Shown: positions 23,786 through 53,486 of the stretch, piece after piece | How the letters are laid out: the number at the start of each line of letters is the position of its first letter | Numbering within the stretch: the stretch's first letter is position 1 | NCBI GenBank assembly: GCA_000004695.1 | Contig: CM000152.2 | Location: 1,312,001 to 1,376,000, forward strand | DNA from: Dictyostelium discoideum | Taxonomy: Eukaryota | Direction: 5' to 3' | DNA length: 64,000 nt | The notes under the pieces: generated by a model | What the model saw: the letters and a program-made list of their open reading frames with translations, nothing else | What the model was told of the DNA's origin: nothing | The model's database searches: none | Translations under genes and position numbers: made by a program

Positions 23786-23914
23786 CTAATTTTATTAAAA
23801 AAAAAAAAGAAAAAAAAAAGAAGAAAAAAAAAGAAAAAAAAATATTTATATTATTAATAATTTAATAATATATAAATAAACATTTAAATATTTAAATAAA
23901 TAAAAAATACTTAC

Positions 23915-26635: not shown

Positions 26636-27661
26636 TTAGAAAAGACCACCAATACCACCAGAAAGTTCTTGTTGTTCTTTAACAAAGGTTTCAAAGTATT
26701 GATAGATGATAGTGACAGCTAATAAAATACCAGTACCAGAACCGATGGCACCCATGAAATCGGCGACGACAGTGAGAGCACCAATACAGAGACCACCAAA
26801 AGCGGCAGCGGTTGGAATATAACGATTGAGTTCCTTGATGACAGAGGTATCACGATGACCTTTCATGGTCATTTGTTGATCTTTGAGTTGCTTAGCAACG
26901 TCACGAGCAGAGGAACCACTAACTTCGATCCAAACTTTGGAGAAGAGAGCACAACTTGTCAACATAAAGGTGATGTAAAAGAGGGCATGGAATGGATCGG
27001 CCAAAACAGCGCTCATATTATTTGGGGAGCTGATGTAATAGGTGAGACCAGAGACTGGAATCATTTGTTGTGAATATTCACTGGTTCTCCAAGCACCAAA
27101 TAAGTTTACCAAAATGTTATCTGGGAAACGACGATACAATAATTGAGAGATGAAATAAAGATTGCTAACGAGTGCACTTTGAAGAATGATTGGAATATTT
27201 GAAGTGTAGAATAACTTGATTGGATAGGTACCTTGTTGACCACTTACACGAGTTGATTTAACTGGAAGATCGACACGGAAACCTTGGAAATAAATTACAA
27301 CCATAAAAATTAACACGGTAGCCAATAAATTGGTAATGTTTGGTAAGTTTTGTCTATAGAATGCTTCTTTGAGTGCTCTAACCTTATCGTTACGAGTTAA
27401 TAACAAATGGAATAATGCAATCACTGCACCTTCAAATTCGGTACCTTTACCAACGGATACTGTAGTTGGTGAAAATGTCTTCCATACAATGGTCTCACAA
27501 ATATTGGTTGCAATAAATAATGAAATACCTGATCCAATACCATATCCTTTTTGTAAAAGTTCATCCAAAAGCATAACAATAATACCTGCAAAGAATAATT
27601 GTAAAACAATTAAAAAGCAGTTACCAAATCCTAAAACTGCTGGATCACCATATGAACCACT
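26636..27661 (-). CDS. sec61a: Sec61 alpha translocon subunit, exon 3 (TM4-TM10, C-terminus)
   Basis: [61 protein letters not shown]... is about 80% identical to human SEC61A1. Acceptor taatAG at 27663-62; phase 0. Confidence 0.9.
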
Positions 27662-27810
27662 CTATTAATTATTATTATTTTTTTTAAAAAATTGAAATTG
27701 AATAAATAAATTTATAAATAATAATTATAAATTTTAATTAGTATGACATTTTTTTTTTTTATTTTTTTTTTTATATATTTTTATATATTTTTTAAAAATT
27801 TAATACTAAC

Positions 27811-28137
27811 CCAAATATAAGCTACACCTTGACCTACACAAATTAACATACCAAATAATTTTTGGGCAGCAGAGAATAAATCTCTATCGGCTTTAACAGA
27901 TTGATCAATTTCAATTAATTTGGCACCTGCTAATAATTGCATAACCATACCTGATGTAACGATTGGTGAAATACCTAATTCCATTAAAGTACCTCTGTTT
28001 GAGGCCATAATAACTTTAGCCCAGTAAAATGGATCTGATGAATCAGTTGATCTAATACCATAAAGTGGAATTTGACTGCAAACTAAGAAAATGAATAAAC
28101 AAATTGCTGTCCAAAGAACCTTTTCACGGAAAGGAAT
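27811..28137 (-). CDS. sec61a: Sec61 alpha, exon 2
   Basis: [28 protein letters not shown]...[33 protein letters not shown]...GQGVAYIW, with a GTTAGT donor. Confidence 0.9.
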
Positions 28138-28301
28138 CTATTTTAAAAAAAAATAATAAAAAAATATAATAAAAAAAAAAAGTATTAGAATATATTGATT
28201 TTATTTTTCATTTTATTTTATTTTTTTTGTTTTTTATTTTTTTGTTTTTTATTTTTTATTTTTTTTTTTTTTGTTTTTTATATTATTTCATTTAAACTTA
28301 C

Positions 28302-28376
28302 TTTTCTATCTGGTTGACCAACCTCTGGAACGAGTGAGGTAAATGGTTTAACAATATCTAAGAAACGGAAACCCAT
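28302..28376 (-). CDS. sec61a: Sec61 alpha, exon 1 (MGFRFLDIVKPFTSLVPEVGQPDRK)
   Basis: ATG plus 25 codons homologous to [25 protein letters not shown], then a GTAAGT donor. Exons 1-3 total 475 aa. Confidence 0.8.
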
Positions 28377-28627
28377 TTTTATTATTGTTTATATATATAT
28401 ATGTATGTAATTACTGAAATTAAAGAGAAAAAAAAAAAAAAAAAAAAATTAATAAATGTTCTTATTTTGTTTATTTATTTTATTTATTTATTTTTAGTTT
28501 TAAATTTCAAAACAATTTAATTTATTAATCAAATTAATAAGAAAAGAAAAGAAAAAAAAAAAGAGTAGGAAAAAAAAAAAATTGAAGCATATATAAATAA
28601 ACTTACAATTGTAGGGTGATGAATGAA

Positions 28628-28672
<45 letters not shown>

Positions 28673-28982
28673 AAAAGTGATGAAGTTTTTAAAAATTTCA
28701 AAAAAAAAAAAAAATTAAAATAATTAATGACTGTTGTTTTTATGAGAAGTCATGTGTGCAGTCAAAAAAAAGTCTGAGTGAAAAAAAAAAAAAAAAAATT
28801 TTTATTTTTACTTTTTCATTTCCAACTTTTGAACTTCTCTTTATTATTATTATTTTTTTTTTTTTATAATTTGAATAATTGTTTTAAATTATTTTTTATT
28901 TTATTTATTTTTTTTATAATTAATTAATTTTTTTTTTTTTTTTTATAATTTAACAAGAATATAAAAATCAAATAAAAAAATA

Positions 28983-29022
<40 letters not shown>

Positions 29023-29271
29023 CACACAATTTTAATAAAAAAAGTGACAAAAATAAATAAATAATAATAATAATAATGATGATATTAATAATGGAATGTT
29101 TTATTTAATATTATCCAATGATGTAAAATATTTAATATTATGAAATTTTAACTAATTATAGTTTTTTATTCACAATTATTTTTTTTTTTTCAATTATTTT
29201 TTTATGAAAAAATTAAAAAAAAAAAACAAAATTTTGAAAAAAAAAACCGAACGAAAATTATTTTTTAAATT

Positions 29272-29279
29272 CCCATAAT
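29272..29279 (+). promoter_or_regulatory. DUSE-like element TCCCATAA upstream of a GC-richer non-coding island
   Basis: An exact match to [A/T]CCCA[C/T]AA. Composition shifts about 60 nt downstream, at ~29340. Confidence 0.4.
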
Positions 29280-29619
29280 TAAAATGTAATCAAGGGAGAT
29301 TCCAAAGCGAATGCTCGTTCAAAAGTTTCAAATCACTCAACAGCCTGCCTCCGTTTTGTGTTTGGTTCTTTTATACCAAATAAACAAGTTTTATGGCAAG
29401 AAGCTCATAATAAACATACATGTGCCTTTAATCAATCTGTAATCTGTTCTATTACACGATTTTCATGCAGTCACAACAACTTTTTTATAATTTTTAAAAA
29501 AAAAAAAATTTTTTTCAAGCCTCCCAAGAGTAAACAAGTAAGTAATGTAAGTAACTTTTTAATTTTTATACACAATATATTATTTGGACAAGTTTATTAG
29601 TGGAACTTTTTTTTTTTAA

Positions 29620-29720
29620 GTGATGATAACCCAAATAGAAATTTTTTTTTGATTCCTTTCGATTCTCTGTTCTAGAGCGTTGGGGGATACTCTGTGATTC
29701 TATATTCATAGTTACTCTGA
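29620..29720 (+). ncRNA. Candidate box C/D snoRNA (box C GUGAUGA at 29620-26, box D CUGA at 29717-20), apparently intronic
   Basis: Canonical C and D boxes lie about 95 nt apart and are flanked by short complementary UUAA/UUAA ends. The candidate sits between a GTAAGT donor (29541) and a strong polypyrimidine acceptor (ttttttctctctcaatttttAG at 29822-23). Confidence 0.35.
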
Positions 29721-30273
29721 TTTAAATAAAAAAAAAACAAATCATTATACCTTTTTTAAAATAATTTTTTTAAAAAAAAAATATATTAACTTTTTTTTTT
29801 TTTTTTTTCTCTCTCAATTTTTAGGTTTCGGTTTTTTTTTTTTTTTTCTTTTCTCTCTCTTTTTTTACAAGCTCCTCTTCTATATTGCTCTTAGCTTAGT
29901 ATGCTTTATTGTCAAATTTTCTTTGACAACTTTTCTGCTAATCACACAGATTGCCGAGATTTTGTCAAAATAATTTTTTAAAAATAAAGCATATTCAACT
30001 AAAAGCAACTTTCTATTTTCAATAAATAAATAAATTAGTTATTTAATAAATGTATAATAAAAAAATAAAGTTAAATATTTTAGAAATTTATCATTTTTTT
30101 TTTTTTTTTCGCTTTCAACTTTTTTATTTTAAATTATAATTAAAACGAGTTATAAAAATTTATATACTTTTTTATTTTATATATATTTTTTTAAATATAT
30201 AAATCTATCTTTATATGTGCGTATTATTTTTTTTATTTATTTATTTATTTTTTTTTTTATTTATAAATTTAAT

Positions 30274-30981
30274 TTAAACACCATCACCAAATTTAATATT
30301 AGTTTCATCAGTTGAATTTGGTGAATGAAAACTTGCATGTAATAAAGTGATACAACAAGTTGCACCAACTAACCAAAAAATTGAACTACCAGCATAAAGA
30401 AGGAAATAAATACTTAAAAATGCTTGAATACCATATGCAATCTTTCTTTGAATATCTGTTAAAGTGGTTGAATTGTGGAGGTAAACAGAGATGAAAAGTA
30501 GTACACCAAGTAATAATAAATAGAATGGATTGGTAATGATAAAGAAAACAGAGAAACAAAGGAATAATATCAAATAGTTTGATTGAAAGTAAACTACATT
30601 CTCTTTAATTCTTGATGTTGTATCTTTAATATTTGGTAAACCATATTGTTGTCTACTACCAACGAATGATCTCCAATCTCTAGTTGTTTCCATACGTTCT
30701 TGTTTAAACTCTTTGATTTTACTTGTAATTGCATTAACTCTATGTGAAATTGATGATGGTTCTAATGATATTCCATTGGCACCTAATGAAAATGATAATC
30801 CACCAATACCAACACTACCAGCTGGTGTAGATGATGCTTGTTGAGGTTGTTGTTGTTGTTGTGGTGGTGGTGACATTGAACCTGTATTATTACCAATATT
30901 ACTATTACCACTATCTACAAATCCCATATTAATATTTGGATTACCATACATTGTTTCATTTGAATTTGAATTTGACTCCAT
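30274..30981 (-). CDS. PRA1 (prenylated Rab acceptor/Yip3) family protein, 235 aa
   Basis: The PRA1 core motif RDWRSFV...ENVVYFQSNYLILFLCFSVFFIITNPFYLLLLGVLLFISVYL is followed by a second hydrophobic pair; the N-terminus is polyQ/N-rich. Confidence 0.75.
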   Translation of the reverse strand: MESNSNSNETMYGNPNINMGFVDSGNSNIGNNTGSMSPPPQQQQQPQQASSTPAGSVGIGGLSFSLGANGISLEPSSISHRVNAITSKIKEFKQERMETTRDWRSFVGSRQQYGLPNIKDTTSRIKENVVYFQSNYLILFLCFSVFFIITNPFYLLLLGVLLFISVYLHNSTTLTDIQRKIAYGIQAFLSIYFLLYAGSSIFWLVGATCCITLLHASFHSPNSTDETNIKFGDGV

Positions 30982-49339: not shown

Positions 49340-49776
49340 TTATTTATTTAATTCTAAAACTAAATTTTCTGCAATTTTTTTAACGATTTCAGATTCATCT
49401 TGTTTAGAGATTTCATTTAAAATTTGATATAGTGAGTTTGTTTGTTCTTTATCTACAAGTAATAATGATGGTGATTGTACAATGGAGGCAGTGATTTTTA
49501 ATAAAGTAATTTTTGAAACGGGAGAACTATCTACTCTAAGACACTCTACCAAAGAATTTACTAATCCCTCATTGATGAGAGATTTTAACAATTGTTGTGA
49601 ACCATTTATAAGGTTAAAAAGTGGTATAATTGATTTTTGAAATGATGGATGTTTAATATGGTTAATATTTAAAATACCAATCAATCTTAATGGTATATTA
49701 TGATTTTCAAATGATGTTGATGATGATGATGTTGGTAATTGTAATGATGATGATGATGTTGATGTTGATGTTGATA

Positions 49777-49809
<33 letters not shown>

Positions 49810-51959
49810 GTGATGATTTTGATGTTGATGTTGATGTTGATGTCGATGTTAAAGGAGATATTGTACCACCACTATTTAATTTTTCAAAAACTAATTTAGA
49901 TTCTAAAGTTGCCCAAGTTGAAATTGATTCTATTGCATCAGCAAACCAATTTCTATCCTCAATTAAATCCAATAGTTTATCGATGGTATTACATTTCCAA
50001 AGTAGGGATCTATTATTACAAGATCTAACCAAATCGAATAGTATCGGTAAGGCCAATTCTTTTAATGGACCTCTTTCTTCGATGATAGTTAGCAATGGTT
50101 CAAGTATTGATGATTTCAATGCTTTCTCTTGTCTACTTCTATCCAATAATAATAAATAATAAAGTGAATGTAATGCTTGATTATGAATCTCTGTAATCTT
50201 ATCGATACCACCATGTTTCTTCAAATAGTTTATCAATGGTGGGATTACACCAGCATCATCTAATCTTGAACGAACATTTGGATCCATTGATAGATTCTTT
50301 ATAACTTTTAATATTTTCAATAGGAATGATCTAATATTATTACCAATGGTTTTCCATGTATAAATTTCATCCAATACATTTACAATATATTTAATAACAT
50401 TGGATTGACTCATCTCTTCCTTTACCAATGAATCACCTGTTGAAAAAAATAATAAAATATCTGCCGCTTTCACACTATATGCTAAAACTTTATCAAATTG
50501 ATCTTTACTTAAATTCTTTACACTTGATGATTTAGATAATACTGGAAATTTTAAATTTGGTGATGATGATGATGGTAATAATTGTTGTTGTTGTTGTTGT
50601 TGTTGTTGCTGTTGTAATAATAATTGTTGTTGTTGTTGAATTTGTTTTTGTTGAAATTGTTGAGATTTACTTGTTGCAGATTTATCGCTTGAATTAAAAA
50701 TTTGATTTAAAAGGTAAGAAATTCTATACATTAATGCAGTTTTTGCAAATAAATGACATAATGCAGTTTTTGGTGAAGCTGTATTCATTTTAAAAATTAA
50801 AGAGATTGCATCCAATGAATTATGAATTAATGTGAAGCCATTGAAATAATCACTATCTAATAGATCTACTAATACTTTACAACCACGACTACCCGTAATG
50901 AACATATTTAAACTATAGGTTGAATAGCTACATAGTTGTAATACGAATTTTGATACTTCCTCTCTAATGAGTTCATCAAATTGTTTGGTTGCCAATTTAG
51001 TTATGATTGAAATACCATTCATTAAACAAATAGTCTCTTGAATATCTTTCTCCTTTATAATGGATTGGTTCAATAGTTTTAATAGATTGATTACCAATTC
51101 AACATTTGAAAAGTCTTCACTAAACGTATCGGAGTTGTTATTATGATGATAGGTTGTCGTTATGACATCGCTTGGCGTATCACTATTACAACAGCAATTG
51201 TCCTCTAAAATCTCTAGAATCGTAATGATGGGTAGTCTAAAATAAACACCACCTTCACCATTACTAATTAATAATTTACGTTCATCTGGATAGGTTTGAA
51301 AAAGGTCTGTTAACTTTTGACAAGTATCAATTAAAACATCATTTGGTTGATTTGGTTTCAATTGTAATATAAATTCAACAATGGTTTTAACAACTTGTTC
51401 TCTATATTTATCTTGAATATTAATTGTACGTTGATTATCTGCTTCTGACCATGATATTGTATCAAACGATTCTTCAAATTCTGTATCCCATTCTTCTGAA
51501 GTTTCTTTAACTTTTAATTTCATTTCTGATGGCGATAATGGTTGTTGTAAATGTTGTTGTTGTTGTTGTTGTTGTTGTTGTAGAAGTAATTGTTGTTGTT
51601 GTTGTTTAAGTTGACCACTACTACTATATCTAATGATTCTATTTGATGGTAGTATTTTCTTTGCAATATTTGAATTTATTGCTGCATTTGTTGTTGCTGT
51701 TGAAGATTCAGATTCATCACCACTTGAACCGAAATTATCAAATTCATCATCCCAATCTTTCTTTTGATTTCTAACTTTAAATCTACTTGTATCGCTAACT
51801 TTTTGATCAAATACTAAATCAGTTTCATCATCTTCGTTATCCTTTTCAGTGAATTTATTAAATTTTAATAATTTTAATTTATGACTATTACTACTATTAA
51901 TACTATTACTATTACTATTATTATTACTATTATTACTACTATTATTATTATTACTATTA

Positions 51960-52021
<62 letters not shown>

Positions 52022-53379
52022 GCTATTGCTATTGCTAATATTATTATTAGCATTAAAACTTTGTTGGCGTTGTAATTGAATTGGTGGTTTATGACTAAGT
52101 ATTGGTTGTAATTTTTGTAAACATATTGTTGAATTTGGTAATACTATATTATCAAATTCATCATCACTTTCTTTCTCTGAGAATTTTCTTAAATGTAAAT
52201 TTATTTTCTCTTTTTCTTGATTCAATTGTTCTTGTGATTTCATCATTGGTGATAATGGTGTAGTTGGAATTGGTGGTGGTGTTGATATAGCTGAAACAAC
52301 TGGTGATGTTACATTTGATCCTGTATTTGTAGAACTTGGTGTAGTAGTAGTAGTAGTATTAGTGGCTGCATTAGTAGTGGTAGTAGTTGTTGTTGTTGTT
52401 GTTGTTGTTGCAGCGGCAGCAATTATATTTGGTTGTATTGATTGTTTTTGACCAGCCGATAATTTACGTGGAGAAGCAATTTGAACATGTTGACCACTAC
52501 CATTATTAATTTTATTTAATGATGATTTATCAATTGAATTTACTGTTTGACTAATTTTATTTGATGGTACAGCTGACCATGATGAATTTAATGTTGGTGA
52601 AGCTTTATTTTGATTAACTGTTGATGTACTTGTTGCTGGTATTGGTAATAATGATGATGATAATGATGGTGATGTTAATTTATTATTATTATTATTAGTG
52701 GTACTACTATTATTTTTAGTAGTAGTTGAAGAAATATTTGGACTATTATTAGTGGCACTACTATTATTATTATTATTATTATTATCATTTGATGAAGAAA
52801 TATTCATATTTGTTAATGGTGGTACTAATTGAGAAGGTGATGGTGGTTGAACTACAGCAGAAGAACGTGGTCTAGTGATGTTACTATTATTATCTTGAAT
52901 GATATCTTGTAATTGAGCATTATAGGAAAGAATTTCTTGACGGGCATTTTTTGGAGCTTGAGTTTCAGGATTCCTAATTTGTACTGATTTCACCCAAGGA
53001 TGATGTAAAAGTTGTTTTGCGGAACTACGTATATTCTCATCCTTTTTGAAGCAATTTAATAGGAAATCTTTTAATGCCGCTGAAATTCCTGGTGGTATTG
53101 GTGGATGATCCTCTTGAACTATCTTATATAATGCAGCAGCTGGTGCTAATCCAAAATAGGGTGGTGTTCCTGTCAATAATTCAATGATTGTACAACCTAA
53201 ACTCCAAACATCACATGCTGTTGATATACCTTGCATTTGAATAACCTCTGGGGCCATCCAATATGGTGTACCTGCAAATGTATCATCTGGATTATCTGAA
53301 CTTAAATCTGAAACTTTTGTTGCTACACCAAAATCTGCTAATTTAATTGAACCATCTGTACTAATTAATAAATTTGCAG
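49340..53379 (-). CDS. sepA: Cdc7(S.pombe)/Cdc15-family STE-group Ser/Thr kinase (septase-like), exon 4: kinase subdomains VII-XI plus ~1250-aa C-terminal region
   Basis: [23 protein letters not shown]...[40 protein letters not shown]...[14 protein letters not shown]...[28 protein letters not shown] is near-colinear with S. pombe Cdc7. The long tail carries polyQ/N/T tracts and helical ARM-like repeats. The sepA symbol is my inference. Confidence 0.8.
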
Positions 53380-53486
53380 CTAAATAATAATAATAATAAT
53401 AATGAATAATATAAAATATAAAAAACAATGTTAACATATTTGAATTATAATCCATTGTCATCTCCTATCTCTCTCTTCTCTCTCAC

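Follow-up and report, generated by a model that had tools for sequence, protein, structure and literature searches.

The catalogued snoRNA genes DdR18 and DdR4 of Dictyostelium discoideum: a compact pair probably served by one DUSE promoter element

Genes for small nucleolar RNAs (snoRNAs) arranged polycistronically on one strand, 100-260 nt apart, are represented by snR190-U14 in yeast, by the mixed C/D and H/ACA clusters of plants, and by the box C/D (CD) clusters of Dictyostelium. Dictyostelium snoRNA genes are commonly clustered at distances of 180-260 nt in bi- or tri-cistronic units, the primary transcripts of which have been seen by reverse transcription PCR (RT-PCR) (Diesend et al. 2022). 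The present study deals with one such locus of Dictyostelium discoideum, situated in a 64,000-nt stretch of chromosome 3 (GenBank assembly GCA_000004695.1, contig CM000152.2, positions 1,312,001 to 1,376,000 of the forward strand; this whole stretch is the window, to which all the coordinates given below refer), where the box H/ACA snoRNA DdR18 is followed by the box C/D snoRNA DdR4, known also as CD4. Like the clusters mentioned above, the pair lies outside the protein-coding genes and would be served by one promoter; it differs from them in the small nuclear RNA (snRNA) type of this promoter, which carries the upstream sequence element of Dictyostelium (DUSE), and in being a mixed H/ACA plus C/D pair. 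The DUSE, of the consensus [AT]CCCA[AT]AA, is found ~60-63 nt upstream of many non-coding RNA (ncRNA) genes of Dictyostelium. The proximal and upstream sequence elements (PSE and USE) of the snRNA-type promoters in animals and plants are likewise short, fixed at about -60, and serve small ncRNA genes of both the RNA polymerase II (Pol II) and Pol III classes, although the DUSE is unrelated to them in sequence.

The locus very probably represents a compact, independently transcribed snoRNA gene pair, located at ~1.3413-1.3417 Mb of the chromosome. The finding at its core is real but already known, both RNAs being present in Rfam as well as in the Dictyostelium literature; what may be of interest to specialists is the way in which an H/ACA and a C/D gene joined in one dicistron are served by a DUSE promoter of the snRNA type. 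The features needed to follow the argument are these:

29271-29278, plus strand: DUSE promoter element TCCCATAA, the only exact copy in the window
29335-29481, plus strand: DdR18, box H/ACA snoRNA (Rfam RF01568)
29428-29468, plus strand: putative pseudouridylation pocket of the DdR18 3' hairpin (minimum free energy, MFE, fold; target predicted)
29482-29616, plus strand: A/T-rich spacer of 135 nt between the two snoRNAs (sequence)
29538-29824, plus strand: hypothetical, unproven intron around DdR4 (drawn from motifs)
29617-29723, plus strand: DdR4, identical with CD4, box C/D snoRNA (Rfam RF01572 and published CD4)
29791-29867, plus strand: duplicated T-run/CTCTCTC tract (direct repeat)
29885-30008, either strand: long imperfect hairpin of 124 nt (inverted repeat and folding)

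Identity of the two snoRNAs

The locus forms an island with a GC content of 0.19-0.32, compared with 0.07-0.135 in its flanks. An earlier note, made on this DNA from its letters, had described such a GC-richer island and had read it as a DUSE-associated non-coding RNA locus; both these points are borne out, the DUSE lying one base away from where it had been placed. The island had also been called free of open reading frames (ORFs), which is nearly right: the only one present is a frame of 80 codons at 29358-29600, which was rejected as coding because it begins with GTG and overlaps DdR18. Judged by its sequence, the GC-richer island is the already catalogued D. discoideum snoRNA pair consisting of DdR18 (H/ACA) and DdR4/CD4 (box C/D).

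This identification is carried by covariance models. With a known RNA being accepted when its Rfam covariance-model score exceeded the curated gathering score, the scan of the whole 64-kb window delivered exactly two matches, DdR18 and DdR4, both of them inside the island and far above their gathering scores; a covariance-model search was one of the checks that the earlier note had proposed for itself. A permissive scan of the region 28300-30300, with the cut-off set at E <= 10, added only sub-threshold matches to snoR442 and GlsR7, which have the guide plus box D in common with DdR4, and offered no family better than DdR18 and DdR4 for either RNA. A tRNA scan of the window found none. The signals rising above chance are the two covariance-model matches (E = 9e-33 and 1e-20) and the canonical distance between the DUSE and the first block of the island; none of the short motifs, when taken one by one, exceeds chance in the window.

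Concerning DdR18 (29335-29481, plus strand), the match to RF01568 covers the complete model (1-147 of 147) and, the gathering score being 80, attains 181.7 bits (E = 8.9e-33). The 5' hairpin (29342-29405) and the 3' hairpin (29421-29475), both reproduced by the MFE fold, flank a hinge containing the H box AUAAUA (29407-29412; criterion ANANNA), and the ACA box (29476-29478) is followed by three nucleotides (ACU) up to the 3' end. Paired changes between the Rfam consensus and DdR18 in the upper part of the 5' stem support that helix. The earlier note missed this RNA, having taken the sequence just 3' of the DUSE, which is a complete H/ACA snoRNA, for a host transcript. DdR18 is the one H/ACA snoRNA that Aspegren et al. 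(2004) are said to have reported for D. discoideum; the locus is the same and the hairpin-hinge-hairpin-tail layout identical, with no structural difference, and what the present analysis reads in addition is the upstream DUSE and a predicted target. Both the DdR18 and DdR4 families occur also in D. giganteum.

The target prediction for DdR18 starts from its 3' pocket, the left strand of which is UUAAUC (29428-29433) and the right strand UUCAUGC (29462-29468) in the MFE fold. From 29462, where the right strand begins, to the ACA box (29476) the distance is 14 nt, the criterion being 14-16 nt upstream of the H or ACA box; the 5' pocket is 18 nt from the H box. Over 7 + 6 nt, the 3' pocket is complementary to 5'-GCAUGAA-UG-GAUUAA-3', a yeast-type large subunit sequence. 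This sequence we take to be the U2314 (Psi2314) site of yeast 25S ribosomal RNA (rRNA), with snR86 as the guide; the yeast 25S sequence so numbered reproduces the known positions Psi2258/2260/2264/2266, Am2280/2281, Gm2288, Cm2337 and Psi2340. With the constant offset of 266 between the Dictyostelium and yeast numberings in the published modification list, the yeast 2314 site maps to U2580 of the 26S rRNA. When the pocket is compared with the 11 nt of Dictyostelium rRNA printed for the surroundings of U2580, 5'-UGAAUGGAUCA-3', 9 of 10 positions pair, with one A-C mismatch. The prediction is that DdR18 uses this pocket to turn 26S U2580, which corresponds to yeast U2314, into pseudouridine. The same nucleotide has been reported as 2'-O-methylated (Um2580) via CD12/CD34; if the predicted target is right, U2580 may bear both marks (2'-O-methyl-pseudouridine), or two snoRNPs may compete there.

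With regard to DdR4, the match to RF01572 is full-length (29617-29722, plus strand) and lies, at 132.3 bits, far above the gathering score of 70 (E = 1.2e-20). The published CD4 is given at chr3:1341617-1341723 on the plus strand, with a length of 107 nt (Diesend et al. 2022), which corresponds to 29617-29723 of the window, and the CD4 probe from the same paper is the reverse complement of 29695-29717; since coordinates, length, strand and probe sequence agree, DdR4 is CD4. Its box C, GUGAUGA (29620-29626; criterion RUGAUGA), and box D, CUGA (29717-29720), are flanked by sequences forming a 5-bp A/U terminal stem, and a degenerate box C', GUGAUUC, is found at 29694-29700. The GUGAUGA...CUGA pair that the earlier note had put forward as a candidate is thus a genuine box C/D snoRNA; RTGATGA...CTGA pairs as such are present at ~7 loci in the window, mostly in GAT repeats.

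Directly upstream of box D lies the antisense element UCAUAGUUACU (29706-29716), which forms a perfect 11-bp duplex (criterion: at least 10 nt) with 5'-AGUAACUAUGA-3' of the 26S rRNA, a published pairing that was checked on the window sequence; an rRNA antisense element in this place had been named by the earlier note as a means of verification. In this duplex, A2522 faces the fifth nucleotide counted upstream from box D, and Am2522 has been detected by RiboMeth-seq, being the equivalent of yeast Am2256 (snR63) and human Am3739 (U46). DdR4 guides the 2'-O-methylation of 26S rRNA A2522, and yeast snR63 and human SNORD46/U46, sharing this target, are its functional equivalents. At 107 nt, DdR4 is longer than most Dictyostelium C/D snoRNAs, and it possesses a T9 run and, in the stretch from D' to C', an internal stem. 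It should be pointed out that the guide plus box D of DdR4, UUCAUAGUUACUCUGA, is contained also in the Rfam families snoR442 and GlsR7.

A metagenome scan for the DdR4-specific two-part pattern gave 0 matches. The 16-mer of guide plus box D was met at 120 loci, only five of which (L016, L044, L084, L099 and L109; GC 0.42-0.62) look like eukaryotic, probably fungal, snoRNA homologues, box C/D-like and with the same layout of C, C' and D; none is dictyostelid and none has a DdR18-like sequence. The five are likely homologues of snR63/U46, and the matches fit a pan-eukaryotic guide.

Two further features of DdR4, the degeneracy of the C' box (here UGAUU) and an internal stem rich in GC, recur in three of these five loci (L016, L044 and L099).

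As a whole, the locus may serve as a calibration case: the reading of the raw sequence rightly flagged a real ncRNA locus and a box C/D snoRNA, yet both had been catalogued.

Promoter, spacer and transcription unit

The DUSE TCCCATAA on the plus strand is seen once in the window, against 3.3 copies expected by chance. It ends 56 nt before the 5' end of DdR18 (29335), its first base being 64 nt upstream, which fits the canonical spacing, and at this distance the element can be assigned to DdR18. The motif search, covering the whole window, found no second DUSE before DdR4, that is, in the 135-nt spacer. DdR4 contains a T9 run (29642-29650) and DdR18 three T4 runs; since four Ts are taken as a Pol III stop in dictyostelids, the runs inside both snoRNAs would halt Pol III, and Pol II is the likely polymerase.

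Most likely, one DUSE-driven Pol II dicistronic precursor is trimmed into the two snoRNAs. Directed by the DUSE, transcription would begin ~57 nt downstream of it, where the mature 5' end of DdR18 lies or close by, and Pol II would read through the spacer into DdR4/CD4; after cleavage of the precursor, exonucleases would remove what is not protected by protein and leave the snoRNP cores. DdR4 together with fibrillarin methylates the 2'-OH of 26S A2522 via the antisense element at box D, and DdR18 together with dyskerin/Cbf5 would convert 26S U2580, its predicted target, to pseudouridine.

The spacer (29482-29616) contains the doubled GTAAGT and, just before DdR4, the TATA-like TATATTAT with a T11 run behind it; folding reveals no significant structure in the spacer (z = +0.49). 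An RNase III site in the spacer was considered and rejected, because of this lack of significant structure and because a drnB knockout leaves the snoRNA levels unaltered; the nucleolar RNase III of Dictyostelium, DrnB, is not needed for the accumulation of C/D snoRNAs, unlike Rnt1 of yeast.

Compared with the 180-260 nt of the other clusters, the present spacer is a little short. As for co-transcription, Diesend et al. (2022), in their account of Aspegren et al. (2004), state that four bicistronic units had been predicted and that primary transcripts had been obtained for three of them, i.e. for all but CD16-CD5. Table S5 of Diesend et al. (2022) contains seven two-member C/D clusters, five of which are called new, so that, by elimination, CD9-CD1 and CD13-CD2 are the two-member units known previously, CD16-CD5 being now part of a three-member cluster (CD16-CD23-CD5). 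From this count, the fourth unit of Aspegren et al. (2004) must be DdR18-DdR4; by the same deduction, the dicistronic DdR18-DdR4 precursor has already been seen by RT-PCR.

Several points have to be set against a single Pol II precursor acting in the way outlined. Its co-transcription rests on the deduction just given, from a secondary source; the TATA-like box and the T11 run before DdR4 make a promoter of its own possible; and the T6 run right after DdR18 would end a Pol III transcript if the DUSE recruits Pol III. Moreover, a dicistron leaves the GC-richer block with the strong hairpin at 29885-30008 unaccounted for, and the target of DdR18 is deduced partly by way of yeast rRNA, the A-C mismatch falling within the 11 nt of Dictyostelium rRNA.

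Some of these points belong to another explanation, according to which the island would be divided into two or three separate transcription units. The DUSE would drive DdR18 only, with termination at the T6 run after ACA+3, DdR4 would have a TATA plus oligo-T promoter to itself (TATATTAT at 29578-29585 and T11 at 29607-29617), and so would the third block (29825-30010), in the form of TATATTAAC plus T18. Each of the GC-richer blocks does have a T-run and a TATA-like element in front of it, the exact 14-mer AACTTTTTTTTTTT is found both before DdR4 (29604-29617) and before the third block (29788-29801), the T6 run stands directly 3' of DdR18, and no common primary transcript has been found for the published cluster CD16-CD23-CD5. 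TATA-like strings and T-runs are, however, ubiquitous in intergenic DNA with 90% A/T and carry little information; the T4 runs inside DdR18 speak against a Pol III gene with a T6 terminator, and the DdR18-DdR4 primary transcript is, as deduced above, among those detected. Separate units are therefore regarded as unlikely, and the dicistronic precursor is preferred.

The repeats of the 14-mer AACTTTTTTTTTTT and the duplicated T-run/CTCTCTC tract may be promoter-like, related to processing, or of low complexity.

The possibility of splicing, favoured by the earlier note, deserves separate treatment. The doubled 5' splice-site motif on which it was built is present one base away from where it had been put, in CAAGTAAGTAATGTAAGTAAC at 29535-29555, with GTAAGT at 29538-29543 and 29547-29552, and the polypyrimidine acceptor, the AATAAA near 29985 and the small hairpin are all found in the sequence as well. 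The acceptor-like site comprises a pyrimidine tract (29790-29816) and an AG (29823-29824), preceded by the branch-like TATTAAC (29784-29790). The T-run/CTCTCTC tract is duplicated, the two copies (29791-29823 and 29835-29867) being 91% identical, and can be read as an acceptor, as a TATA plus oligo-T promoter of the Dictyostelium type, or as plain low-complexity intergenic sequence.

Put together, these elements would describe a DUSE-driven, spliced and polyadenylated ncRNA host extending from ~29335 to ~30005, with DdR18 in exon 1, DdR4 released from an intron (29538/29547-29824), and the hairpin plus AATAAA (29983-29988, plus strand) in exon 2. The consensus donor occurs twice, in the context AACAA|GTAAGT; TATTAAC lies 34 nt before the AG, and a long pyrimidine tract leads to the acceptor TTTTTAG|G. 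Such signals closely resemble those of real introns in the window, e.g. the ones starting at 23914 (minus strand), 28301 (minus strand) and 33039 (plus strand); furthermore, the 3' end of DdR4 is ~100 nt before the AG, the AATAAA follows downstream at 29983, and the third GC-richer block would be accounted for. On the other hand, GTAAGT is at chance frequency in the window (17 seen, 18.8 expected), its doubling here reflecting a local 9-nt repeat, and the acceptor is made less specific by a second, equally good pyrimidine tract with AG (29835-29871; AG at 29870-29871) 44 nt downstream, the same elements looking also like a Dictyostelium TATA plus oligo-T promoter. Processing would be fatal either to an exonic H/ACA snoRNA or to the host transcript carrying it. 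Finally, CD4 has been published as intergenic, with CD38 as the only intronic C/D snoRNA, and the snoRNA clusters of D. discoideum have been described as polycistronic precursors. Such a host is thus quite improbable.

Even less probable is the version of a spliced DUSE transcript (~29335-30010) in which splicing itself would separate the exonic DdR18 from the intronic DdR4 and the hairpin of the 3' exon would be an RNase III/small-RNA precursor or a 3'-end signal; if true, a promoter of the snRNA type would here control a non-coding gene with three products, which has not been described for Amoebozoa. A parallel would be offered by the animal snoRNA host genes UHG and GAS5, with their intron-encoded snoRNAs: DdR4 is likewise flanked by a consensus donor and an acceptor, its distance from the 3' splice site being plausible, with no ORF and with AATAAA downstream. 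DdR18-DdR4 would differ from them in having one exonic snoRNA, a promoter of the snRNA type instead of the TOP type, and an intron that is a candidate only; the sole intronic C/D snoRNA reported in D. discoideum, CD38, is in a protein-coding gene. As far as the motifs go, splicing of a host transcript is unproven and also unnecessary.

The hairpin between the snoRNA pair and the PRA1-family gene

The third GC-richer block is dominated by an imperfect hairpin of 124 nt, an inverted repeat at 29885-30008. Its folding energy is -36.9 kcal/mol on the plus strand (z = -6.57) and -43.5 kcal/mol on the minus strand (z = -5.96), neither value having been reached by any shuffle. In the scan of the whole window for structural outliers it takes first place on the minus strand and fifth place on the plus strand, the others being either A/T runs or trinucleotide repeats situated within a long ORF. 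The small hairpin recognized in the earlier note, made up of TTGTCAAA (29909-29916), TTTTC and TTTGACAA (29922-29929), is an alternative pairing within the long one. AATAAA signals are placed symmetrically in both arms, at 29983-29988 in the 3' arm on the plus strand and, as TTTATT at 29905-29910, for the minus strand.

Behind the hairpin there is a PRA1-family gene (Pfam PF03208; 30274-30981) on the minus strand, converging on the snoRNA locus; the earlier note had erroneously considered it the upstream gene. Three readings of the hairpin are conceivable: it may help to form the 3' end of the snoRNA precursor or to process it, it may give rise to small RNAs as a precursor so far missing from the annotation, or it may be a structure lying past the end of PRA1, the convergent gene.

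A repeat or a miniature inverted-repeat transposable element (MITE) was rejected, the hairpin being single-copy in the window.

That the third block stands outside the snoRNA unit is possible, if rather doubtful; the hairpin would then be either a small-RNA precursor, microRNA (miRNA)-like and a substrate of DrnB, or an element on the minus strand in or behind the 3' untranslated region (UTR) of PRA1. For this speak the z-scores of about -6.6 (plus) and -6.0 (minus), with the first place among the minus-strand outliers of the window, the greater stability of the minus-strand fold (G-U pairs 5 vs 2), and the energy of ~-0.3 kcal/mol/nt, which agrees with the energy part of the criterion for Dictyostelium miRNA precursors (a hairpin below -0.2 kcal/mol/nt that yields DrnB-dependent 21-nt 5p/3p duplex reads); most of the known Dictyostelium miRNA loci are, in addition, intergenic. 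The difference of five to two G-U pairs is, however, not significant, and the hairpin begins 266 nt past the PRA1 stop codon, with many AATAAA signals nearer to the stop. It has no Rfam match in the permissive scan of 28300-30300, neither its sequence nor its coordinates occur among the miRNAs in the supplement to Liao et al. (2018), and its sequence was not found in the main text of any Dictyostelium paper searched in this way. Along with the possible double modification of U2580, the hairpin between the snoRNA unit and PRA1 is a lead worth following up.

Other signals and genes in the window

The structural outliers at 52340-52880 on the plus strand are GTA, GTT and ATT repeats within an ORF of 1373 amino acids (49340-53461, minus strand). 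As a structured RNA, the outliers at 52351-52860 were rejected, trinucleotide repeats in such a coding ORF being ordinary for Dictyostelium.

A second GUGAUGA...CUGA pair, spanning 101 nt at 28677-28777 of the plus strand, was also rejected as a C/D snoRNA and is probably due to chance. It gave no Rfam hit at E <= 10, a terminal stem is missing, an A15 run lies inside it, the 47 published C/D snoRNAs do not include it, and it is antisense to what appear to be a 5' UTR exon and intron of the Sec61alpha gene.

The Sec61alpha gene itself, encoding a SecY domain, belongs to the minus strand; exons occupy 26636-27574 and 27781-28008, and the ATG is apparently near 28385. Its first coding intron apparently starts from the GTAAGT at 28301, and the GTAAGT at 28606 probably begins an intron in the 5' UTR; the GC-richer patch at 28730-28780 is likely to be the 5' UTR exon of this gene.

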